Source of the DNA: Oscillospiraceae bacterium
GTDB taxonomy: Bacteria; Bacillota; Clostridia; Oscillospirales; CAG-272
Assembly (NCBI GenBank): GCA_015065205.1
Contig: SVQS01000003.1
Location: 1-33,452 of the forward strand
DNA length: 33,452 nt
Direction of reading: 5' to 3'
Under the pieces are notes generated by a model. The model was not told where the DNA came from and ran no database searches. It worked only from the letters and a program-made list of their open reading frames with translations. The translations under genes were made by a program, and so were the position numbers. Shown here piece after piece: positions 7,106 through 19,324 of this stretch (position 1 is the first letter of the stretch; every line of letters begins with the position of its first letter).

Positions 7106-8185
7106 ATGAGTGAAACTATCAAAAACGCGTTGCCCGAAACCGACCTGCGCACGGCGGATTTTTACTATGATTTACCACAGGAGCTCATTGCGCAGCACCC
7201 GATGGAACAGCGCGATACCTCGCGTCTGATGGTGCTTGACAGAGCCGAGGAGAGCATCACGCACCGTCATTTTTATGATATTCTGGACTATCTGCACGAG
7301 GGTGACGTGTTGGTCATCAACGATTCCAAGGTCATCCCTGCGCGTGTGTATGGTCACGTCGAGGGTAGGGAAGAGGCACTGATCGAGTTGCTTCTTCTCC
7401 GCCAACACGAACTCGATACTTGGGAGTGCTTGGTCAAGCCCGGCAAGCGCGCACGCATTGGCATGAAGCTCGTATTTGGCGAGGGGATGCTTTTGGGTGA
7501 GGTCAAGGATATTGTAGAAGAAGGCAACCGTCTCATTCATTTTACCTATGACAAAGAAAAATATGCCAACATCTATGATGTATTGAGTGTTGTTGGATTG
7601 ATGCCCCTGCCGCCCTACATCACCGAAAGATTGACGGACAATAGCCGCTATCAAACGGTCTACGCGCGCGAGGAAGGCTCGGCTGCGGCTCCCACTGCGG
7701 GACTGCACTTTACTCCCGAATTGCTCGCACGTATTCGCGAAAAAGGCGTGGCAATCGCGCCCGTAATGCTGCACGTGGGCCTGGGAACCTTCCGTCCTGT
7801 TAAGGAAGAAAACATCACCGACCACGTGATGCACACCGAATTTTTCTCGGTTCCCGAAGAAGGTGCACGCATTATAAACGAATGCAAAGCCGCAGGCGGA
7901 CGCATCATTTGCGTGGGAACGACATCCTGCCGCACTATCGAAAGTGTTGCGCGCGAGGACGGAACCATTCCCGCGATGAGCGGTGACACCGGCATTTTTA
8001 TCTACCCGGGCTACAAATTCAAGGCAGTGGACGCACTCATCACCAATTTCCATCTGCCCGAGAGCACTCTTTTGATGCTCGTTTCCGCGTTTTATGACAA
8101 AGAAAAGGTGATGGAAGCGTATCACACCGCAGTTGAAGAAAAATACAGATTTTTCAGCTTTGGCGATGCGATGTTTATTCAGTGA
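7106..8185 (+). CDS. queA: tRNA preQ1(34) S-adenosylmethionine ribosyltransferase-isomerase
   Basis: 'DFYYDLPQELIAQ', 'MPLPPYI', 'YQTVYA..GSAAAPTAGLHF', 'LHVGLGTF', 'TNFHLPEST', 'RFFSFGDAM'. Confidence 0.97.
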   Translation: MSETIKNALPETDLRTADFYYDLPQELIAQHPMEQRDTSRLMVLDRAEESITHRHFYDILDYLHEGDVLVINDSKVIPARVYGHVEGREEALIELLLLRQHELDTWECLVKPGKRARIGMKLVFGEGMLLGEVKDIVEEGNRLIHFTYDKEKYANIYDVLSVVGLMPLPPYITERLTDNSRYQTVYAREEGSAAAPTAGLHFTPELLARIREKGVAIAPVMLHVGLGTFRPVKEENITDHVMHTEFFSVPEEGARIINECKAAGGRIICVGTTSCRTIESVAREDGTIPAMSGDTGIFIYPGYKFKAVDALITNFHLPESTLLMLVSAFYDKEKVMEAYHTAVEEKYRFFSFGDAMFIQ

Positions 8186-8214
8186 AAATTTATTTTGTGA
8201 AAAGGAGAAAGAGT

Positions 8215-9597
8215 ATGAAAAACATTTTTAAAATTGCAACATTATTTTGCTTGGCCATTTGCGTTATGCTATTGATGGCTGCTTGCAACACAAAGGATGA
8301 AACACCACAAACAACAACTAACGAAGAAACTACCTCTCCCGAAATTACCACTCCCGAAATCACAACCCCTGAGGAAACAACTGCTACCGATACTTCTGTA
8401 ACCTACACAGTAACCGTGGTGGACGAGAACAACGCGCCTCTTGCAGGTGCTACCGTTCAGCTTTGTGTTGGCGAGCTTTGCAGACTTCCCGTGTTTACCG
8501 GTGCAGACGGTGTTGCAATTCTTAAGATTGACGAAGCAGACTACACCGTAAAGGTAACCCTTGGCGGCTACACCGGCGAGGCAGAATATCACTTTGCCGC
8601 AGGCTCAACCGAGCTTACGGTTCAACTCACAAAAGTTCCCGAGGAAACATCAGAAGAAGATCTTTACCCCGAGCCGGTCAAGCAGCTGCTGACAAATAAC
8701 CAACCGTATTCTTTGGAGTTCGTTTCCAATGGAGACGGAACCTGCTATGTTAGCAAGCTGTATTTGAACAATCGATACGAGACTGCATTTGACATAATCA
8801 TTCCCGAACAATCCCCCACGGGAGATACTGTTACGGGCATTGACTTTGGGGACTCTCTCACCTCTCCGAATGACATAGTGCCTCGATTCTTGACGCAAAA
8901 TCAAGTAAATGAGATTTTAACGCAGGTCAAGGCAGATTATCCGGATCTGGAAAACGGCGATGTCGACAGATGGTGGATAAATGCATACCTTCATTTCGAT
9001 GTTTCAAAAATGTCACCATTGATGGCTCAAGAAATGATTAAAAGATATCCAGTGCTTGAATATATGAATATTATTTTTTCTTGGTCTTCCAAAATGTCTA
9101 AAGTTGATGACACCTTCTTGAGACTTAAAATGGCCGACATTACGTTGTCTGTAGCAAAACAGTGCTATGAAGACCTTATTCAAGAGATGCGTGATGCAGG
9201 TGCGCCCGAAGAAACGCTGACCATTTATAAAGAACTCTTAGAGGCAATGCCTGTGTACGTAAATCAGAGCGAATATGTTCGCTATTTACACATTCCGTCA
9301 TCGGTTACCAATATCAATGCAGAGTCGTTATCTTGTTTGATGTTTGAGTTTGAATATGATGGTGAGTGTATCGATAGAGGTGTTGTTCTTCCTGCGTTTG
9401 ATTTGCAAACCACAAATGCAATAAAGCGCGCCGTTGCCGCAAGTTTGCCTGATGAGTATGAATTTGTTATTTTTTCTCAAAGCACGTCCTCTGTTGGGTA
9501 TGAGGAAATCGACAATTTTGCAATCTATTCTCCTGAAGAACCCGAAAGCAATGTTCTTGCTTGGCACTATGTAGATGGTGTGCCGACGCTTTGGTAA
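8215..9597 (+). CDS. Putative surface lipoprotein: Thr/Pro/Glu linker, beta-sandwich domain, BspA/LRR_5-like segments
   Basis: RBS AAGGAG before ATG 8215. Signal peptide ends in lipobox MAAC. TTPE repeats, 'YTVTVVDENNAPLAGATVQLC', 'IIIPEQ', 'LHIPSSVTNI', C-terminal 'WHYVDGVPTLW'. Confidence 0.7.
   Translation: MKNIFKIATLFCLAICVMLLMAACNTKDETPQTTTNEETTSPEITTPEITTPEETTATDTSVTYTVTVVDENNAPLAGATVQLCVGELCRLPVFTGADGVAILKIDEADYTVKVTLGGYTGEAEYHFAAGSTELTVQLTKVPEETSEEDLYPEPVKQLLTNNQPYSLEFVSNGDGTCYVSKLYLNNRYETAFDIIIPEQSPTGDTVTGIDFGDSLTSPNDIVPRFLTQNQVNEILTQVKADYPDLENGDVDRWWINAYLHFDVSKMSPLMAQEMIKRYPVLEYMNIIFSWSSKMSKVDDTFLRLKMADITLSVAKQCYEDLIQEMRDAGAPEETLTIYKELLEAMPVYVNQSEYVRYLHIPSSVTNINAESLSCLMFEFEYDGECIDRGVVLPAFDLQTTNAIKRAVAASLPDEYEFVIFSQSTSSVGYEEIDNFAIYSPEEPESNVLAWHYVDGVPTLW
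8338..8382 (+). repeat. Three imperfect 15-bp tandem repeats coding the PEITT linker
   Basis: cccgaaattaccact cccgaaatcacaacc cctgaggaaacaact. Confidence 0.75.
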
Positions 9598-9913: not shown

Positions 9914-10492
9914 GTGACACCCATCGAAAAAAACATTATTGTAGTAGATGAGCAAGGAAATGAATATGAGGCGACCTATCCAAAACGGGCAAAAGGTCTT
10001 GTAAAAAACGGCAGGGCACGCTTCGTAGACGAAAACAAAATATGCCTTGCGTGTCCTCCGGATAAAATTTTGGAGGAAGAAAAAGTGTCTAATAATACAA
10101 ACGAATTGACCGCAAAGGAAATCTTCACACAGATTACCATTCTGCAAAAGCAGCTTACCGAAAACAGTCAAACATCTTTGCATCGCCTTGGGGATGCGCT
10201 TTCAACGTTCGAGAGTGAAAACGTTGAGGATTCCGGTGAGCAAATTTCCGAAATTTGCAATGTTTTTTATACGAGAGAGCTGACACTTCTCAAGATGCTT
10301 GAAATGTATGAAAAGATGTACAATGACATTCAAAACGAGGAAACCAAAAAAGTTAATTTGGTAAAATCGGCATTTGATAACAATATGGCAATGATAAAGG
10401 AATCCAATATGGAAACACAAGACAAGGTTGCAGCTCTCAGCTACGTTACCGATAAAATTGCAGAGCTTGTAGAAAAAGCAATCACCAAATAA
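9914..10492 (+). CDS. Hypothetical protein with RRXRR/PLMP-like N-terminal module and helical C-terminus; start uncertain (GTG 9914, ATC 9923 or GTG 10085)
   Basis: ORF has its own promoter and terminator. N-terminus 'IIVVDEQGNEYEATYPKRAKGLVKNGRARFV'. Confidence 0.75.
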   Translation: MTPIEKNIIVVDEQGNEYEATYPKRAKGLVKNGRARFVDENKICLACPPDKILEEEKVSNNTNELTAKEIFTQITILQKQLTENSQTSLHRLGDALSTFESENVEDSGEQISEICNVFYTRELTLLKMLEMYEKMYNDIQNEETKKVNLVKSAFDNNMAMIKESNMETQDKVAALSYVTDKIAELVEKAITK

Positions 10493-10842: not shown

Positions 10843-12687
10843 GTGATCAGAGAAGATTTGAGAAACGTGGCAATTATCGCGCACGTTGACCACGGTAAAA
10901 CGACATTGGTAGACGGGCTCCTCAAGCAGGGCGGCATCTACCGCGAAAATCAAGAGACCGTTGTTCGCGTTATGGACTCCGGCGACCTTGAAAAAGAGCG
11001 CGGCATTACCATTTTGGCAAAGAACACCGCCGTTCACTATAAGGATATTAAGATCAACATCATCGATACCCCCGGCCACGCCGACTTTGGTGGCGAGGTT
11101 GAGAGAATTTTGAAGATGGTAAACGGTGTTATCCTTTTGGTTGACGCTGCCGAGGGACCTATGCCCCAAACACGCTTCGTTTTGCAAAAGGCGTTGGAGT
11201 TGAACCACCGCGTTATCGTTTGCATCAACAAAATAGACAAGCCCGATGCCCGTCTTGGCGAGGTTGAGGACGAAATTCTCGAACTCTTGATGGACCTTGG
11301 CGCAAACGACGAACAGCTCGACAGCCCGATGATGTACTGCTCGGGTCGTGCAGGTACTGCTACCGAGGATCCCCTCGAAGAGGGCGTTGACCTGACTCCT
11401 CTGTTTGAAAAGATCGTCAACTATATGCCTGCTCCCGAGGGAGATGAGACGGGTGATCTTCAGCTGCTCGTTTCCTCCATCGACTACAACGATTACGTTG
11501 GACGTATCGGTATCGGACGCATCGAGCGCGGAAACATTCGTGTAGGTCAAGAGGTTGCCATCTGCAACTATCACACCCCCGGCGCCATTAAAAAGACCAA
11601 GGTTGTCTCTCTTTACCAAATTGACGGTCTTGTTCGTCAGCCTGTTGAAAGAGCTACCGTTGGCGACATCGTCTGCTTCTCCGGTGCGGGCGACATCACC
11701 ATTGGCGACACATTGACCACCGTTGCCCATCCCGAGCCTTTGGAGTTCGTTAAGGTCTCCGAACCCACAATGGAGATGACCTTTATGGTCAACAACAGCC
11801 CCTTGGCGGGCAAGGAGGGTAAGTTTGTTACTTCCCGTCAGCTGCGCGACAGACTCTACCGCGAGCTGCTCAAGGATGTTTCCTTGCGCGTATCCGACGG
11901 TGACACCACCGACGAGTTCCGCGTTGCGGGCAGAGGTGAAATGCACCTTTCTATCCTTCTTGAAACCATGCGCCGCGAGGGCTTTGAGCTTGCTTGCTCC
12001 AATCCCCGTGTGCTTTACAAGGAAATCGACGGCAAAAAGTGCGAGCCTATGGAGCGCGTAACGCTTGACGTTCCTATGGATTACGTTGGCGTTGTTGTTG
12101 AAAAGCTCTCCCAACGCAAGGGCGACCTGCTCTCGATGAACCCTGTCGGAAGCCGCACACGTATCGAATATTCTATTCCGTCTCGTTGTCTGTTTGGCTA
12201 CCGTTCCGAGTTCCTCACCGCTACCCACGGCGAAGGTGTTATCAACACCATCTTCGATGGTTACGCACCTTATCGCGGAGAGATCACCATGAAGTTCACA
12301 GGCTCTCTCATCGCGTCCGAGGCAGGTGAGACCACCCGTTACGGTCTCTACAACACCCAGGAGCGCGGGCAGCTCTTTGTTGGTCCGCAAACGCAGGTTT
12401 ATGAGGGAATGATCGTTGGTGAAAACCCGAAAAACGATGACATTGCCGTCAATCCTTGCAAAAAGAAGCAACTCACCGCCATCCGTTCTGCGGGTGCGGA
12501 CGAAAAGCTTCTCTTGACTCCTGCCAAGATTTTCACCTTGGAAGAAGCAATCGAATATATCACCGATGACGACCTCATCGAGGTCACACCCAAGTCCATC
12601 CGTCTGCGCAAAAAGATCCTCAATACCGAACTCCGTATGAAGGAAATGATGCGCCGCCGCCGTGAATTGGAAGCACAAAAGAAGTAA
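10843..12687 (+). CDS. typA: Translational GTPase TypA/BipA
   Basis: 'LRNVAIIAHVDHGKTTLVD', 'ERGITILAKN', 'DTPGHADFGGEVER', 'GRGEMHLSIL', 'EVTPKSIRLRK'. Confidence 0.98.
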   Translation: MIREDLRNVAIIAHVDHGKTTLVDGLLKQGGIYRENQETVVRVMDSGDLEKERGITILAKNTAVHYKDIKINIIDTPGHADFGGEVERILKMVNGVILLVDAAEGPMPQTRFVLQKALELNHRVIVCINKIDKPDARLGEVEDEILELLMDLGANDEQLDSPMMYCSGRAGTATEDPLEEGVDLTPLFEKIVNYMPAPEGDETGDLQLLVSSIDYNDYVGRIGIGRIERGNIRVGQEVAICNYHTPGAIKKTKVVSLYQIDGLVRQPVERATVGDIVCFSGAGDITIGDTLTTVAHPEPLEFVKVSEPTMEMTFMVNNSPLAGKEGKFVTSRQLRDRLYRELLKDVSLRVSDGDTTDEFRVAGRGEMHLSILLETMRREGFELACSNPRVLYKEIDGKKCEPMERVTLDVPMDYVGVVVEKLSQRKGDLLSMNPVGSRTRIEYSIPSRCLFGYRSEFLTATHGEGVINTIFDGYAPYRGEITMKFTGSLIASEAGETTRYGLYNTQERGQLFVGPQTQVYEGMIVGENPKNDDIAVNPCKKKQLTAIRSAGADEKLLLTPAKIFTLEEAIEYITDDDLIEVTPKSIRLRKKILNTELRMKEMMRRRRELEAQKK

Positions 12688-12688
12688 T

Positions 12689-12800
12689 TGTCAAGGTCTA
12701 ATTTCATTGCTAACAAGTCTAATTTAATCGCTAACAAGATTGGGTTAAAAAATGCGATGTTTAATTTAATCGCTAACAAGTACAATTTAATCGCTAACAA
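12689..12800 (+). repeat. typA-proximal transposon end: four 21-bp putative transposase-binding sites
   Basis: Consensus gtctaatttaatcgctaacaa at 12696, 12717, 12759 and 12780, all in 21-bp phase with one unrelated 21-bp spacer. Confidence 0.9.
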
Positions 12801-12810
12801 GAAAATACCA

Positions 12811-12858
12811 AAGCAGAAGGACGGGACTCCAAAATTGGAGTTCCGTCCTTTTGCTTTT
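12811..12858 (+). terminator. Strong hairpin just inside the transposon end (would terminate typA read-through)
   Basis: aagcagaaggacgggactccaa-aa-ttggagttccgtccttttgctt followed by tt. Confidence 0.75.
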
Positions 12859-13001
12859 AAAACCGTATCGACCGCAGGCTCAATTTCTTTGAAATCGTGT
12901 GATTTATCGGTTATCTGTAAAGTGTTTTGAATGTTACGGATTATTTTATCCTTCGTAATTTCTTTTTCGTGTTGCTCTGTTCTGTCATATATTAAAAAAT
13001 A

Positions 13002-13030
13002 TTGAAAAACGATTGAATATATGATATAAT
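13002..13030 (+). promoter_or_regulatory. sigmaA promoter of the cargo operon
   Basis: TTGAAA-17 bp-TATAAT with extended TG. Confidence 0.75.
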
Positions 13031-13062
13031 AGACCATATAAAGCTTGTATTGGAGAATTTTT

Positions 13063-13497
13063 ATGCCTAACAAAAGCATTCAAATATACGTTGCCCTAAA
13101 GCACATGGGAAACGTAGCAAGAAAAGTAAAAGAATATCCGTTCTTACTCGGTAAGACACCGCGCACGTTTCGTGAGTTGATCGAAGAATCGGTAAGATCT
13201 TGCGTTGATGCATACAAGACACGCGCAAACAATGCGAACAACCCCGCACCGCTTACCGATGAGCAGCTTGACGGGATGCGCGAGATCGGCAAATTTGCGT
13301 TTGGTGTGCATTACAATGAAAACAAAATAGACGAAGAAAAAGCTATTCAAACTGCGATAGATGCGGTGACGGACGGACTTGTGCGCGTGTTCAAGGGGAC
13401 GAATGAAATTACCGATCTTGATGCCGAAATCGAAATATCCGAAGGCGATGTCTTTACGTTCGTAAGACTTACAATGCTCTCGGGCAGAATGTGGTAA
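13063..13497 (+). CDS. Small hypothetical protein with MoaD/ThiS (ubiquitin-like)-style C-terminus
   Basis: RBS GGAG before ATG 13063. C-terminus 'VRVFKGTNEITDLDAEIEISEGDVFTFVRLTMLSGRMW'. 13 bp upstream of the next gene. Confidence 0.75.
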   Translation: MPNKSIQIYVALKHMGNVARKVKEYPFLLGKTPRTFRELIEESVRSCVDAYKTRANNANNPAPLTDEQLDGMREIGKFAFGVHYNENKIDEEKAIQTAIDAVTDGLVRVFKGTNEITDLDAEIEISEGDVFTFVRLTMLSGRMW

Positions 13498-13510
13498 AGG
13501 AGGGACCCCA

Positions 13511-16500
13511 ATGGCGGATAATGTTTCGGAAAAATACGAAGCAATGATGAAAAAGAAAAAGCTCGCGGAAGCTTATGCGGAAAAATTTCGCAAGCGCGAG
13601 GAATTGCTGAAAGAAAAGCTAAGCAAGGGGCAGTATGATTTTTTCAAAAATCAAGGACAATTCCTTGACCAGACCATCTATTCGAATCTCGTAACGGCAA
13701 TGAGAAATCCGAGTACCGTTCCTTCGGAATACGTATCCAAAAAATTGGGATGGCTCTTTGATTTTGCAATTCCAAGCCGTGAAAAGGACGTTATTTTGTA
13801 TTTTGCGGACAGACTGCAAGAATATCCTTATTCGGATTCTTACAGCAGAAGATCGTTCAGGGCAAAAGGGAACGGCGCATACGCATCGAAGCTTGCGTAT
13901 ATGATCCGTCAATATGGCAATGCCAATATGAATGTAGTCGACGAGCCCCTCGACAAAATTATCACCGGAGAAGTATCCGAACAGGCCAAGGCTTATCTTG
14001 ACGGCTATGCTTGGCGCGGATGCGGATATACGGGATGGCAGGTAGCATACGCACTTGATCATCATAACAGTAAAGTAGAAGAAGCCGTTCGTCGAATCCT
14101 GACCGAGGAAAACGGTTCGGGAATGATGACAAACGAGCTTATTCGCGGTGTGGTTTTCAGCCACAGAAGTGATTTTCATGAGCTTCTGGGCAAGCTGCTT
14201 CTTGCGGCAAGACTGCAAGAAGGTCTCCGCCAAGTCATCTGCGAAAATGCCGATTACGGCACAAAAGCCTGTTTTCTCACCATATTAAAGGTAATTGCCG
14301 AGGACAATTTGATCCGTTTTTCATCGGTTAAGCGCGCTGTGGGAACTTGGCTTGGTATCTTGACGGAAGAAGCGCGCGATCTTGACCGCGTCAGCGAAAA
14401 GAGCGTTCGTCTGATCATTGATTGTCTTGAAGACGAAAACGCACGAAAGAAACACCTTGCATCCGAGGATGCGATGAAGATCTATATTGCTCTTTGGAGC
14501 TACGGTCTCGATGATATTGACGATGCCATTCAAAAAATCGTTCAGATTGCAAACAACGGCTCAATACATCAGTTACTTGTAGCAGGCTATTTTGTGGCAA
14601 ATCTCGATCTGCCGTATCTATCCAATCAGATCGCAAAGATCGTGCTGAAGAAGCACTACGATAAGGACGAGGTTCTTGCAGTATGGCTTCCTTGCTTTAT
14701 GCCCACACGAGTGTCTGCCTTGTGGAATGCCATAAGAAACGAGCAGCCTATCGAATACAACACTTGGTTTGATAGTAAGGCTGAAATACACGAGCATTAT
14801 CAGCTTATCAAAGAGCTGTATTCTGCTTTCTCCGGCAAAACCAAAACATTCTCCCCCTGTGTTTTTCCGTGGTATGAAGCCAAAATTGCCAAGAGTGATT
14901 TTGCCGAACTTCTTTGCACCTTGACGGCTTTGTTGGGGGATAATGAAAAAATTGATGAAGCCTGCGGCTTGATCAAAGAATGTGATTCCAATCAAAGGCA
15001 AACTTATTTTTACGCCCTGCTGCACAATCCCAAAACACCGCTCCAGCGTAAAACCGTGTTGGAAGGTCTTGTTGATAGAGAAACATACACTCGCAAATCA
15101 GCTTACACGATTGTGTCCCAAATGAAATTGTCGGCTGATGAATATCACTCTATCGAGGAATATTTGCGTTTTAAGGGTGCAGATATTCGTAAAAACGTAA
15201 TAGAGCTTTTGCTCCGGCAAAATGATTCCGAACTCACCGCGTGCATCGGTCGACTGCTTGAAAACAGCAAGGAAGAAGTGCGCCTTGGCGGACTTGATAT
15301 GCTGTTGCAGCTCAAAAAGGATGCAAAACGCCACAAAATCACAGAGTCCTTTGCAAGTATTCTTTCCCAAAGAGCAAAAGCCGATGATCTTCCCTCAAAG
15401 GAAAAGATCTTGCTTGATTCTCTTGTTCCCGCAAAAGCGGAAACGAAAACGGAGGCAGTCAAGCTGTTCTGTGCAGAGGACAAATACCTGCCTGTCGAAT
15501 TTGATGCAGAGTATACAGAGCTGTGTGCAAAGACCTTTGCAGAATATTTCCCGGACTCGAAATTGCCCGAGCTGATTCGCGGCAAAAAGAGGGGGATGAA
15601 CTTTTTTGACAAGATCAAATCGGCATTGACTGATCCTGTTGCCTGCAAATCCGCAACTGTTGCGGCGATGGATATTCTGTCGCTTTCCAAGCTGATTGAT
15701 GAGCATAAACGCGATCCGTTTGTAAATTCGTGGGGCGAAACTGTACTTTTTGGAAACGTACCGCCGCATTCTCCCCACCTTGAGGACAAAGACGGTAAAT
15801 TCGTGTTTGCAGAGCTCTGGGATGAATGGAAAAAGACCAATGGAATAACCAATGCGCGCCTTGTTCGTGCGCTCGTTTTGTTCAAAGCATACAGAAAGAA
15901 AACACACTTTTCCGTGACTTGCGCAGAGACGATAAGAACCGTATTTGGAGCAGGCTTTGAACGTGGCGAAAATCTTCCTTATCCCGCTATTATCGCCATG
16001 ATTCTCAGTCACCTGCTTGACTGTGTGCCGAAGGAAGAGCTCTCACAACTTGCATCCGCAATTGCGATATGGTTTATCGGGTGCGTACCTGATAATATGG
16101 TTATGATTCACGCTCCAACACAGGAAAAATTGCCAATGCAACTGGAAATGGCACACCTGCTTGCACACGCTCAGTTGTATCAAATTTACAAATGGTTGAA
16201 ATGTGAAAACAATGCTGATTTGAAAAACACTTTCCCATTAGCTGTTGCATCTGCGGAACGTTGTGTGGCAGCTTTCAAGAAGATTCCCAAAGAAGAAACG
16301 AAGATCGGCAATTCCTATTACTACATTGGCGATTCACGTATTCGTGTTTTGCACGAGCCGCATGAGAGTATGTACGGTTCTCGCAATCCTCTTGTCGGTG
16401 TAAACGCATATTTGTTTGCGGCATATCAAGGTATTATTACCAAGGCTCAGTTGTTTGAATTCTTGCTTGATGCTGATAACCTACGCGAATCGATGGAGAC

Positions 16501-18760
16501 CGTGACTGCTATTGCATCGACTTACTACGAAAAGGGGAAGCAGATCTCCGCCCACGATTCTTACAAGGGGATTCGCAATGCCCGTAAGGTGAAAGAGTTC
16601 CTTGGCAAAGAGGATGAACCGAGTGCAGAGGATATAAAGATCATCGAGTACGTTTCTCATATTTATGAAGCTGTTATTCCCGTCGTTCTTGCTTCCGAGC
16701 TTAGCCGTGGCGATAGCCCCGCGACCTATACCAAGGGAATTCACGGCATCGCGCGCATTTACGGAGCAAAATATCTCTCGGAGATATTGTCCGCTATGGG
16801 TAACGATACCCTTGACAGAACCGCATATTACGGTTGGGGCGAAGCAAGTAACCGCAAAGGCTCGCTTTCCTACCTTCTTTCCGTTTGTATCCCGTCCGAC
16901 GAGGATTCTGTAGATACGCTTCGTGCGGCTCTTTCGGGGAAGAAGATCACCACCAAGCGCTTGATCGAAGCGGCATTGTTCTCTCCCGAGTGGATACCGA
17001 TCATTGGCAAATATCTTGAGATCGATTCCTTTGAATCGGTTTGCTACTACTTTATGGCGCACATGAACGAAAGGTTCGACGACAAGCGCAAGGCGATGAT
17101 CGCAAGATTTACGCCCCTTTCGGAGGACGAATTGAATCTCGGTGCGTTTGACGTGAATTGGTTCCATTCTGCATACGATTCCATCGGAGAAAAGGAGTTT
17201 GACCTGATCTACGATGCCGCCAAGTACATTTCCGATGGTGCAAAGCATTCCCGCGCGAGAAAGTATGCGGATGCGACACTTGGCAAATTTGGTGTGGACG
17301 AGACCGAAAAGACCGTTTCCGACAAACGAAACAAAGACCTTTTGATGGCGTATGCACTCATACCGCTTTCGGGCGAAGACGATATTTGCCGCCGCTATCT
17401 TTATATCCAAAGATTCCGCAAGGAAAGCCGTCAGTTCGGTTCACAACGTGTAGCAAGCGAAGGGAAAGCTGTTGAAATGGCGCTTACCAACCTCGCGATC
17501 AACGCGGGATATTCCGATACGATGCGTCTCACCTTGCGTATGGAGACCAAGGTCATCGACGACAGCCGAGCACTTCTTGAAGAACAGATAATCGAGGGGG
17601 TATCCTTAAAGATAACACTTGATGAAAACGGCAAGGCAAGTCTTGTTTGTGCAAAGGACGGCAAGACGCTCAAGAGCGTTCCCGCAAAGCTGAAAAAGAA
17701 TGAAACCGTTGTGGCTCTTACCGATATGGTCAAAACGCTCACCGAGCAGTACAGACGCACACGGGTGATGCTTGAGAGAGCAATGGAAGACAGCACCATC
17801 TTTACCTTTGGTGAGCTTTCAGCACTGTCGGCGCATCCCGTGGTTTATCCGATGCTCAAAAATCTCGTGCTGATCAGCGGCGATGCCGTTGGCTTCCTTG
17901 CCGACAACGGACTTGTGAATGATAATGGAACGATACAGCCTCTTGACGATAGTGCGAAAATCAAGATCGCCCATCCGTTTGATCTTTACAGCAAGAGCTG
18001 TTGGAGAGATTATCAAAAGTATCTCTTTCAAAACAAGATCGCACAGCCCTTCCGCCAAGTATTCCGCGAGTTGTATGTCAAGACGGCAGAAGAAATGGAT
18101 ATGTTCCATTCTCTCAGATATGCCGGCAATCAGATACAGCCCGCCAAAACAGTCGGTGCGCTTAAGAGCCGCCGTTGGGTAGCGGATATTGAGGACGGTC
18201 TGCAAAAGGTTTATTACAAAGAGAACATTGTGGCGCAGATCTATGCGCTTGCCGATTGGTTCTCGCCTGCGGATATTGAAGCTCCCACGCTTGAATGGGT
18301 GTGCTTTACCAACCGAAAGACAGGTGAAGAGATCAAGATCGCGGATATTCCCGACATCGTATTCTCCGAGGTCATGCGCGACGTTGATCTCGCAGTCAGC
18401 GTAGCGCACGCAGGCGGTGTCGATCCCGAAACAAGCCACTCCACAATCGAGATGCGTGCGGCTATTCTTTCCTTTGTTCTGCCTATGTTCCGCATAGCAA
18501 ACGTCAAGGTAGAAGGTCATCACGCCATCGTGGACGGCAAGCTTGCAGAGTATTCGATCCACCTCGGAAGCGGTGTCGTGCATCAGATTGGTGCTGCAAT
18601 GATCCCCGTCCTGCCCGTCCATTCACAGCATAGAGGAAAGATATTCCTGCCTTTTGTGGATGACGATCCCAAGACAGCCGAGATCATATCCAAGGTTCTT
18701 TTGTTTGCAGAGGATGATAAGATCAAGGATCCTATGATATTGTCAAATATCAGTAAGTGA
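13511..18760 (+). CDS. Large DUF4132-domain (YehI/MolR-like) protein with helical-repeat N-terminal region
   Basis: RBS AAGGAGG. C-terminal motifs 'LKSVPAKLKK', 'IAHPFDL', 'QPFRQVFRELY', 'FSEVMRDVDLAVSV', 'YSIHLGSG', 'FLPFVDDDPKTAEIISKVLLFAEDDKIKDP'. HEAT-like repeats around aa 500-610. Confidence 0.85.
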   Translation: MADNVSEKYEAMMKKKKLAEAYAEKFRKREELLKEKLSKGQYDFFKNQGQFLDQTIYSNLVTAMRNPSTVPSEYVSKKLGWLFDFAIPSREKDVILYFADRLQEYPYSDSYSRRSFRAKGNGAYASKLAYMIRQYGNANMNVVDEPLDKIITGEVSEQAKAYLDGYAWRGCGYTGWQVAYALDHHNSKVEEAVRRILTEENGSGMMTNELIRGVVFSHRSDFHELLGKLLLAARLQEGLRQVICENADYGTKACFLTILKVIAEDNLIRFSSVKRAVGTWLGILTEEARDLDRVSEKSVRLIIDCLEDENARKKHLASEDAMKIYIALWSYGLDDIDDAIQKIVQIANNGSIHQLLVAGYFVANLDLPYLSNQIAKIVLKKHYDKDEVLAVWLPCFMPTRVSALWNAIRNEQPIEYNTWFDSKAEIHEHYQLIKELYSAFSGKTKTFSPCVFPWYEAKIAKSDFAELLCTLTALLGDNEKIDEACGLIKECDSNQRQTYFYALLHNPKTPLQRKTVLEGLVDRETYTRKSAYTIVSQMKLSADEYHSIEEYLRFKGADIRKNVIELLLRQNDSELTACIGRLLENSKEEVRLGGLDMLLQLKKDAKRHKITESFASILSQRAKADDLPSKEKILLDSLVPAKAETKTEAVKLFCAEDKYLPVEFDAEYTELCAKTFAEYFPDSKLPELIRGKKRGMNFFDKIKSALTDPVACKSATVAAMDILSLSKLIDEHKRDPFVNSWGETVLFGNVPPHSPHLEDKDGKFVFAELWDEWKKTNGITNARLVRALVLFKAYRKKTHFSVTCAETIRTVFGAGFERGENLPYPAIIAMILSHLLDCVPKEELSQLASAIAIWFIGCVPDNMVMIHAPTQEKLPMQLEMAHLLAHAQLYQIYKWLKCENNADLKNTFPLAVASAERCVAAFKKIPKEETKIGNSYYYIGDSRIRVLHEPHESMYGSRNPLVGVNAYLFAAYQGIITKAQLFEFLLDADNLRESMETVTAIASTYYEKGKQISAHDSYKGIRNARKVKEFLGKEDEPSAEDIKIIEYVSHIYEAVIPVVLASELSRGDSPATYTKGIHGIARIYGAKYLSEILSAMGNDTLDRTAYYGWGEASNRKGSLSYLLSVCIPSDEDSVDTLRAALSGKKITTKRLIEAALFSPEWIPIIGKYLEIDSFESVCYYFMAHMNERFDDKRKAMIARFTPLSEDELNLGAFDVNWFHSAYDSIGEKEFDLIYDAAKYISDGAKHSRARKYADATLGKFGVDETEKTVSDKRNKDLLMAYALIPLSGEDDICRRYLYIQRFRKESRQFGSQRVASEGKAVEMALTNLAINAGYSDTMRLTLRMETKVIDDSRALLEEQIIEGVSLKITLDENGKASLVCAKDGKTLKSVPAKLKKNETVVALTDMVKTLTEQYRRTRVMLERAMEDSTIFTFGELSALSAHPVVYPMLKNLVLISGDAVGFLADNGLVNDNGTIQPLDDSAKIKIAHPFDLYSKSCWRDYQKYLFQNKIAQPFRQVFRELYVKTAEEMDMFHSLRYAGNQIQPAKTVGALKSRRWVADIEDGLQKVYYKENIVAQIYALADWFSPADIEAPTLEWVCFTNRKTGEEIKIADIPDIVFSEVMRDVDLAVSVAHAGGVDPETSHSTIEMRAAILSFVLPMFRIANVKVEGHHAIVDGKLAEYSIHLGSGVVHQIGAAMIPVLPVHSQHRGKIFLPFVDDDPKTAEIISKVLLFAEDDKIKDPMILSNISK

Positions 18761-18855
18761 TTGAGGCATATTGAGCTTGAACGACTTACATAGGTTAGTT
18801 GATATCAGTAGAATGTCAATTTTTACGAAAGTTAAAATTGTTTGATAAGTCAACA

Positions 18856-18892
18856 GACCCCCGAGGCAAATTTTGCGCTTCGGGGGTTCTTT
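18856..18892 (+). terminator. Terminator of the cargo operon
   Basis: gacccccgaggc-aaattttgc-gcttcgggggtt-cttt. Confidence 0.7.
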
Positions 18893-19008
18893 GTAAAAAG
18901 GAAAAGTTTTCAAGATAAAAAGTCTTGTTTCAAAAATAGATGTAAGTTAACATTGAAGGGGCAAGTTTCTAACAAAGACAAAAACATCCGTTTTTATGCT
19001 TTATAAAC

Positions 19009-19145
19009 TTGTTAGCGATTAAATTAAACCTAAAAATAACGCATTTTCAGAAAAACAAATCTTGTTAGCGAATAAATTAGACCTGAAATGCTTAAAATTG
19101 CTCAAAAACACCGCAATCTGTTAGCGATGAAATTAGACTGTGACA
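19009..19145 (-). repeat. Distal transposon end: three spaced 21-bp putative transposase-binding sites
   Basis: Inverted copies at 19009-19029, 19062-19082 and 19118-19138 (53 and 56 bp apart), then terminal tgtgaca. Confidence 0.9.
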
Positions 19146-19160
19146 GTAATTGAAAGAGAA

Positions 19161-19262
19161 TGCAGGGGGGGAACTTTTTTCCAAAAAGTTCCCCCCCTGC
19201 ACCTCCTTCAAAAACTTTTGCACAAAAGGGAAGGAGAAGCCGTCGGTTCACAAACAGACGGA
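19161..19262. repeat. Structured dispersed repeat, partial inverted copy C
   Basis: Hairpin tgcagggggggaactttttt-cc-aaaaagttccccccctgca, then cctccttcaaaaactt and ccgtcggtt...aacagacgg, matching the 3' half of copies A and B in reverse orientation. Confidence 0.75.
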
Positions 19263-19284
19263 ACGTCAGACAAATTCGGATAGG

Positions 19285-19324
19285 AAAACCGCCCCAAGAA
19301 GCCGCGTGGCTTCTTGGGGCGGTT
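19285..19324 (-). terminator. Terminator of the hydrolase gene
   Basis: 17-bp stem aaccgccccaagaagcc-gcgt-ggcttcttggggcggtt, 9 bp from the stop. Confidence 0.8.

Follow-up and report, generated by a model that had tools for sequence, protein, structure and literature searches.

In the MoaD–MoaE and ThiS–ThiF/ThiG systems, a small beta-grasp protein is encoded beside its partner and works through a flexible C-terminal tail that ends in glycine. The bacterial ubiquitination-like systems (CBASS Cap2/Cap3, Bil and Bub/6E; PMC10097602, PMC10557695, PMC11601596, PMC11601603) likewise place a beta-grasp ubiquitin-like protein (Ubl) in a compact, horizontally mobile operon and are defined by their E1, E2 and JAB or deubiquitinase (DUB) genes. 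Here we analyse a locus that resembles both kinds of system only in part. It lies in a stretch of 33,452 nucleotides from an Oscillospiraceae bacterium (GenBank assembly GCA_015065205.1, contig SVQS01000003.1, positions 1 to 33,452 of the forward strand), referred to below as the window. The locus is a two-gene operon that makes up the whole cargo of a Tn7-like element, and it encodes a small protein of 144 residues followed by a giant protein of 1,749 residues that carries a DUF4132 domain.

The locus shares with the MoaD and ThiS systems a small protein encoded beside its partner and ending in a flexible tail with a glycine; MoaD chains are among the fold matches of the small protein, and a ThiF gene accompanies one of its relatives that end in Gly-Gly. 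However, the window protein ends in G-R-M-W rather than G-G and contains a helical insertion of about 45 residues, while its 1,749-residue partner has no similarity to MoaE, ThiG or CysM and no E1 nearby. The locus also differs from CBASS, Bil and Bub in that E1, E2 and JAB/DUB genes are found neither in the window nor in 36 related neighbourhoods, and in that there is no PADLOC match. For the window this agrees with the original prediction, made for this DNA from its sequence, that no E1, E2 or JAB gene is present, none of these domains being detected among the 28 open reading frames (ORFs) scanned. The giant protein has its DUF4132 domain in common with the MolR/YehI-type WGR-DUF4132 proteins of E. 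coli, for which the literature is minimal, although Pfam detects no WGR domain in it and the window holds no YehLMPQ-type AAA+/vWA genes.

The pair is of interest because DUF4132 proteins are widespread (at least 596 loci with the C-terminal module described below, and 547 small-protein clusters) yet hardly studied. Full-text and title/abstract literature searches, which do not reach supplements, returned no published description of the pair; the full-text search found no mention of DUF5724, the N-terminal family of the giant protein, and the DUF4132 literature is sparse, with five papers that name the domain and none describing the pair. The original prediction had read the two genes as a Ubl plus a DUF4132 protein and had labelled them a candidate defence system. 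The observation itself is confirmed and the first of these readings is largely right, whereas the defence label is unsupported.

Linkage and distribution of the gene pair

The small-protein family is almost always encoded directly upstream of a DUF4132-DUF7737 protein. Among 15 close loci, a DUF5724-type gene lies directly downstream of the small gene in all 14 that are informative, the remaining one (L005) ending too early. In a sample of 401 genomes spread evenly over the phylum, DUF7737 is present in eight and the small-protein profile finds the same eight, with no discordant genome, and the two genes are adjacent in all seven positive genomes other than the window's own. Relatives of the C-terminal module of the giant protein occur at no fewer than 596 genome loci, of which 80 were recovered; 15 of these are cut inside the giant gene, and at 61 of the 65 informative loci that are left the small gene lies immediately upstream. 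The co-occurrence on which the original prediction depended is therefore observed both in genome sampling and in gene order.

The family is patchy, being found in 2–3% of sampled genomes. In Bacteroidota, DUF7737 was detected in 10 of 301 genomes, in proteins of either about 1,700 or about 860 residues. Close relatives of the window protein, with 56–60% identity in the C-terminal module, are found in Lachnospiraceae, Selenomonadaceae, Filifactor and Bacteroides/Parabacteroides, and the presence of such close relatives in both Bacillota and Bacteroidota implies horizontal transfer of the pair.

Fold of the small protein

The small gene (13063–13497, plus strand; ATG at 13063, TAA at 13497) encodes a protein that ends ...EGDVFTFVRLTMLSGRMW, and translation bears out the C-terminus quoted in the original prediction. 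No model in Pfam, NCBIfam or PADLOC matches it. Its relatives number 346 in a word-indexed search and 547 representative clusters (E ≤0.001) in an exhaustive one, and most of them are about 139 residues long with the same end position. An AlphaFold2 model based on an alignment of 72 small-protein sequences (alignment A1) has a predicted local distance difference test score (pLDDT) of 86.2 and a predicted template modelling score (pTM) of 0.76. A pair of strands comes first in the model, then a long helix, two inserted helices, a further three strands and finally a disordered tail (bb-a-[a a]-bbb); the last strand spans residues 130–135, and residues 141–144 have pLDDT values below 50.

When this model is compared with 48,161 PDB representatives using VIA-align, the best 50 matches are all ubiquitin-like, MoaD, Ras-binding (RBD) or DIX-type folds, at Z 5.5–8.1. 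Examples are 1v2y (Z 8.1, root-mean-square deviation 3.8, 94 residues aligned), 8r7n_B (Z 7.5) and ubiquitins near Z 6, and the MoaD chains are 5mpo_B (Z 6.9), 1vjk_A (Z 5.8) and 6jc0_A (Z 5.6). Foldseek gives weak matches (best E 0.011), mostly to the same fold class. At the level of sequence, the A1 profile has no credible match in the PDB (best E 0.63), and the ThiS model of Pfam matches weakly in two of the 72 family members (best E 0.011). Because the list of structural matches is so uniform and accords with the predicted model, we assign the small protein a predicted beta-grasp (ubiquitin/MoaD-like) fold with a helical insertion; the Z values by themselves lie within the range of chance matches. 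The original prediction had suspected such a fold, and model and fold searches agree with it.

A set of 8,000 longer candidates included no fused form of the small protein, although as evidence this is weak. As a separate observation, a protein of 5,037 residues (P0241) has ten separate stretches that match residues 83–126 of the small protein, so the helical insert may have been reused there as a repeat unit.

The C-terminal tail

The invariant feature of the family is the last strand together with the tail, F-x-[K/R]-L-T-x-L-x-G. Across A1, residues G76, G105 and G141 are invariant, and the terminal glycine, whose conservation was at issue in the original prediction, is also retained in the listed tails of 150 representatives and of 61 loci. 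The residues that follow it are a second G (in relatives with a short partner), none, a W or F, or R-M-W, as in the window. Most of the 150 representative sequences listed end in [A/S/T]-G-R-[M/L/I]-[W/F/Y], the commonest forms being AGRMW (40), SGRMW (19), AGRLW (10) and SGRLW (10). Three residues follow the glycine at 45 of the 61 loci carrying the small gene and a single aromatic residue (W or F) at eight, while five end at the glycine and three have some other tail, one of these being a degraded gene. The window gene product lacks a free C-terminal Gly or Gly-Gly carboxylate, a feature confined to relatives, namely the five loci ending at G and three short-type proteins of Bacteroidota that end in V-G-G. 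The tails of no residue and of one residue form one Lachnospiraceae clade of 14 rows, with support of 100/100 in a tree of the partner's C-terminal module, and within this clade the tail switches between the two lengths at least three times.

On sequence grounds, R-M-W is a conserved cap and not a variable tail. It is kept across overall identities of about 35% and in this respect is unlike a tail that is thrown away. The original prediction had pictured a glycine followed by three residues that could be processed; the glycine is indeed invariant, but the tail is conserved rather than variable, and natural variants with no or one residue exist.

The giant protein and its C-terminal module

The giant gene (13511–18760, plus strand, ATG at 13511) encodes three Pfam families and no others. 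DUF5724 covers residues 55–1344 (nt 13673–17542; E 4.7e-292, 972.7 bits), DUF4132 residues 1384–1556 (nt 17660–18178; E 1.1e-43, 149.7 bits) and DUF7737 residues 1646–1747 (nt 18446–18751; E 2.1e-35, 121.2 bits), to be compared with Pfam gathering cut-offs of 25, 27 and 27 bits respectively. Residues 1340–1749 (17528–18757, plus strand) constitute a C-terminal module that is common to short DUF4132-DUF7737 proteins of about 860 residues (alignments A2 and A4). Residues invariant across long and short partners are H1488-P1489, R1519-E1520-x-Y1522, S1619-E1620-x-x-R1623-D1624-x-D1626, D1638-P1639, H1684-x-G1686-S1687 and L1713-P1714-F1715, and there is no cysteine among them. The motifs RELY, SEVMRD and HLGSG, which the original prediction had singled out, are present and contain residues that are invariant across these two architectures.

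A model of residues 1340–1749 has a pLDDT of 80.3 and a pTM of 0.65. Foldseek finds no credible match to it (best E 0.044, low probability), and VIA-align matches only a sub-domain, model residues 192–297, which resembles generic TBP-like, helix-grip or KA1 folds (2pww_A, Z 7.4, model residues 192–294). No ligase, E1, E2, JAB, protease or adenylation fold is listed for the module, a blank that is not an exclusion. Searches of the PDB by sequence are similarly without credible matches, the best E value being 0.74 for the giant protein and 0.3 for the C-terminal profile, and the ESM Atlas returns DUF4132 clusters only, with scores of at most 0.87. For the HEAT-like repeats that the original prediction had seen in the giant protein, the sole hint is a weak PADLOC match to a HEAT-ARM model (E 0.0083).

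Relatives ending in Gly-Gly

In Bacteroidota, three of four genes for the proteins of about 860 residues have upstream of them a small ORF whose product ends ...SF[L/V]KLT[P/Q]LVGG. Comparison of the A1 profile with one of these Gly-Gly-ended proteins by hhalign gives a probability of 98% (E 2.9e-13) and aligns G141 with the penultimate glycine, and by this profile comparison the window small-protein family is homologous to the Gly-Gly-ended small proteins of Bacteroidota. The two types of locus thus have homologous small proteins, homologous partner C-terminal modules, the same gene order and tight spacing. They differ in that the window partner has an additional DUF5724 N-terminal region of about 1,300 residues, in that its small protein ends in G-R-M-W instead of G-G, and in that no ThiF neighbour is seen for the DUF5724 type.

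A ThiF neighbour does occur at one of the four short-type Bacteroidota loci (L138), where the DUF4132-DUF7737 gene has its stop codon inside a ThiF-family/E1-like gene (E 1.1e-64). Among the 143 ORFs flanking 36 DUF5724-type loci there is no ThiF, E2 or JAB. The window's own genome contains a single ThiF-family match, on another contig (G000 contig C198, 11843–12538), with one TGA and one TAA inside it; the gene may be broken, or the match may cover two genes.

Possible mechanisms

The explanation that we favour for the pairing, with a probability of about 0.4, is a mechanism resembling that of MoaD and MoaE, with the tail of the small protein docking non-covalently in the conserved C-terminal module of its partner. 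In this model the tail would be the working interface of the small protein and would insert into the DUF4132-DUF7737 module of the giant, by analogy with the insertion of the MoaD tail in MoaE. For the clade of DUF5724-type loci that includes the window, the contact would be non-covalent and the terminal aromatic residue would serve as an anchor or cap, so that the small protein would be a stoichiometric subunit or regulator of a giant scaffold and not a conjugated tag. In favour of this reading we count the carriage of the two genes as one cargo, the predicted fold, the tight linkage of the genes, the conserved tail, the homology to the Gly-Gly-ended type, the lack of ThiF, E2 and JAB among the 143 flanking and 28 window ORFs, and the absence of an invariant cysteine from the C-terminal module. 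Several observations weigh against such docking. The model of the C-terminal module shows no recognisable pocket-bearing or enzyme fold, and the Z values of 5.5–8.1 obtained for the small protein are within the range reached by unrelated models or by chance. Four of the 65 informative loci lack a small gene upstream (L051, which is broken, L070, L077 and L094). The N-terminal 1,340 residues of the giant, which lie outside the model, could hold catalytic domains. Finally, the variants that end at glycine, together with the ThiF gene beside a Gly-Gly relative, fit an activated glycine at least as well as they fit docking.

An activated glycine is central to the rival that ranks close behind, which we regard as possible on a tentative footing. 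The small protein would here be a capped precursor of a Ubl: R-M-W would be a propeptide that the giant protein or a peptidase of the host cuts off after Gly141. An E1-like enzyme whose gene lies elsewhere would adenylate the exposed glycine, which would then be conjugated to targets or thiocarboxylated, with the DUF4132-DUF7737 protein acting as processing enzyme, ligase or acceptor. The invariance of Gly141, the homology to Gly-Gly-ended relatives and the ThiF-family gene at one of four short-type Bacteroidota loci are all in keeping with this, as is a tail of zero, one or three residues that, in one clade, has changed between zero and one on at least three occasions. Tail-length behaviour of this sort is shown by the precursors of Atg8, UFM1 and other eukaryotic Ubls. 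An active site could moreover be formed by the acidic, His and Ser residues that are invariant in the C-terminal module, although the module has no invariant cysteine and its model matched no protease or adenylation fold, the latter again being a blank and not an exclusion. The persistence of R-M-W among relatives of only about 35% identity is unlike what is typical of discarded tails. Nor is an E1, E2, JAB or peptidase gene consistently found beside the DUF5724-type pair, with ThiF in none of the 36 neighbourhoods, and the sole ThiF match of the own genome (74.7% complete) has two internal stops.

A bolder form of the same idea, which we think improbable, would make the DUF4132-DUF7737 module itself a new kind of Ubl-handling enzyme that recognises G-R-M-W, cuts after Gly141 and activates or transfers the small protein without E1, E2 or JAB. 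If this were true, the two-gene cassette would represent an undescribed type of protein-tagging (or sulfur-transfer) system, minimal in size and able to move horizontally, and the precursor would exist in alternative states with Gly-Gly, Gly, Gly-Trp or Gly-Arg-Met-Trp ends. An obligate partner of ubiquitin fold with a conserved, naturally variable C-terminal cap offers the first concrete and testable handle on the function of these giant proteins, and the pair would extend bacterial ubiquitin-like systems beyond those based on E1, E2 and JAB.

Biological role

As to what the pair does for its host, we lean towards an accessory function in stress or conflict, spread by horizontal transfer. Two more specific roles can be considered. 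The first, compatible with either the docking or the capped-precursor mechanism, is defence against phages or mobile elements by a system carried as transposon cargo; the original prediction had proposed a defence role, which seems to us unlikely. The pair has a Tn7-like element to itself, it is patchy (eight of 401 phylum genomes, and ten of 301 Bacteroidota genomes with DUF7737), and it has close relatives across distant groups, implying horizontal transfer; all of this would suit a defence system. Some neighbours would as well. The 36 neighbourhoods include L113, with an SF1 helicase-DUF2726 gene and Mrr_cat upstream, L085, with a reverse transcriptase, and L099, with a WYL regulator. In the first set of loci, the pair at L003 follows a TnpV gene and an AAA_15/AAA_21 ATPase with a DUF4435 protein, a combination that we take to be PARIS-like, and L012 has a WYL regulator. 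However, defence-like genes occur at only three of the 36 neighbourhoods, the 143 flanking ORFs being mostly housekeeping genes (tRNA synthetases, sigma factors, transporters and metabolic enzymes). PADLOC-DB 2.0 has no model for the small protein and yields no credible match for the giant, only a weak one to HEAT-ARM_XIII (E 0.0083, 11.5 bits), and Pfam, NCBIfam and PADLOC reveal no effector domain, whether nuclease, NADase, pore-forming or of another kind.

A role as a DNA-damage or stress-response module appears slightly less likely still. The comparison here is with the drA0165-drA0166 operon of Deinococcus radiodurans, in which DRA0166 has a DUF4132 domain and which, as PMC8533742 reports, is strongly up-regulated on depletion of DdrO. 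DUF7737 matches are also found in the D. radiodurans control genome, and DNA-repair genes flank the pair at five of the 36 loci, namely mutS-mutL (L075 and L087), a RecN-like SMC_N gene (L097), SbcD (L089) and an MrfA-type helicase (L102). The two mutS-mutL cases may represent one event and not two, since L075 and L087 belong to one clade of the tree, and the Deinococcus protein differs from the window protein in architecture. A LexA/Cheo box (GAAC-N4-GTTC, with at most one mismatch) is present upstream at 5 of 62 loci as against 6.7% of control windows and is not enriched, and the promoter of the window operon is near-consensus and looks constitutive, with no obvious operator.

One further neighbourhood deserves mention in its own right: upstream of the pair at L005 (3828–8177) are a TnpV gene and a gene for a protein of 1,010 residues with a weak match to the RNA-dependent RNA polymerase family PF05183 (E 1.7e-9).

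Layout of the operon

The operon is a self-contained module. A sigma-70-type promoter, TTGAAA-17-TATAAT with a TG extension (13002–13030, plus strand), matches the consensus at 11 of 12 positions and is the best of seven promoter-like sites in 12600–19300, a number of sites that is not above that in shuffled sequences (mean 10.2). The two genes are 13 bp apart, and the gap between them contains the Shine-Dalgarno sequence AGGAGG of the giant gene (13498–13503, plus strand). Transcription would end at an intrinsic terminator (18856–18896, plus strand) with a 12-bp stem (hairpin 18856–18888), a 9-nt loop and then UUCUUUGU, a U-rich tail; its RNA fold has a free energy of -23.8 kcal/mol (z -4.8), and none of 200 shuffles is equally stable. 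It is because of the 9-nt loop that a simple terminator scan missed the hairpin. Promoter, closely spaced genes and terminator are therefore all located where the original prediction had placed them, and together they fill the element.

The Tn7-like element and its insertion site

The element is 6,457 bp long (12689–19145) and is placed at the stop codon of the GTPase gene typA/bipA (10843–12687, plus strand; Pfam GTP_EFTU, BipA_C and EFG_C), which serves as the attachment site. It is bounded by 5-bp target-site duplications, GTAAT, read directly from the sequence at 12684–12688 and 19146–19150, and the typA stop codon TAA (12685–12687) falls inside the left copy. Repeat searches and a motif scan define a left end (12689–12802, plus strand) with the terminal sequence TGTCAAGG and four repeats of about 22 bp, and a right end (19005–19145, minus strand) with three repeats and the terminal sequence ...CTGTGACA. 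The left-end repeats are tightly packed at a spacing of 21 bp and the right-end repeats are spaced by 53 and 56 bp. The TGT...ACA termini, the asymmetric arrays of four and three internal repeats, the 5-bp duplication and the insertion just after a conserved gene are all as in Tn7 and Tn7-like transposons. Tn7 itself uses glmS as its attachment site, whereas the element in the window uses the stop codon of typA.

A further difference from Tn7 is that the transposition genes are not inside the element. Neither the ORF list nor Pfam shows a transposase or a TnsA, TnsB, TnsC or TniQ/TnsD gene within it, and the cargo pair is all that it contains. When 185,579 species genomes were scanned with the 19-nt end repeat, six loci emerged, one of which (L025, from a metagenome-assembled genome (MAG) of Eubacteriales) has an identical end sequence adjoining typA and, behind this shared end, two TniQ genes, TnsA, an rve-type TnsB and an AAA_22/TniB-type TnsC. 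Since the window element has no transposition genes, and since this sibling with Tns and TniQ genes shares its end repeats and its site, the window element is, by this comparison, a cargo-only, non-autonomous offshoot of a Tn7-like family whose autonomous members insert at the 3' end of typA. This refines the original prediction, which had the pair as sole cargo of a Tn7-like carrier. Lacking such genes, the element must be mobilised in trans, and it offers a clean natural case of cargo-only Tn7 derivatives in gut Clostridia. In the autonomous element of L025 (1573–10092) the order is TniQ (607 residues), TniQ (707 residues), TnsA, TnsB and TnsC, with all genes pointing to the typA-proximal end, an order different from the tnsABCDE layout of Tn7.

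The same insertion is found in a close relative (L001), in which the left end is shortened and the right end lost, and at L006 the operon likewise follows typA. The own genome, a MAG of 1.84 Mb that is 74.7% complete, contains no further copy of the end repeat, and a Mu-transpos_C search gave no match in it, a blank that extended to the control genomes and therefore carries no information. Empty sites were also sought: contigs of four metagenome DNA runs contain no empty-site joint, and none was obtained at typA among 40 relatives, the matches being mostly to a dispersed repeat. The plasmid collection has no match to the element. DNA of the element occurs in metagenome runs of gut and faecal origin from 12 studies, and no RNA runs are listed among the sequencing runs that hold it.

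Metagenome contigs show some variation at the element ends. A contig from run X10 is without 21 nt at window position 12763, that is, it has one left-end repeat fewer, from which it follows that the number of end repeats varies between strains. In run X7, one contig (window 12683–12691) leaves typA at 12691 and enters another sequence, which resembles an element end and has a GAAATATAACAA repeat, and a second runs from the end of the giant gene (18758) through about 92 nt with a GAAATATAACAA repeat to the left end of the window element. The X7 contigs suggest either that Tn7-like elements of a second type also carry this cargo or that there is a tandem array.

Two ORFs lie between queA and typA. 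The first (8182–9597, 471 residues) has weak matches to CarboxypepD_reg and Big_1 only, and the second (9914–10492, 192 residues) has no annotation from Pfam. Just to the right of the element, at 19150–19230, is a perfect palindrome, the arms of which are 19 bp long (TGCAGGGGGGGAACTTTTT / AAAAAGTTCCCCCCCTGCA). The palindrome belongs to a dispersed repeat of about 75 nt that looks like a repetitive extragenic palindromic (REP) or miniature inverted-repeat transposable element (MITE) sequence, with 22 matches in the own genome, several of them overlapping or opposite-strand hits on one palindromic copy, and an occurrence in 19 of 24 genomes of the same genus.

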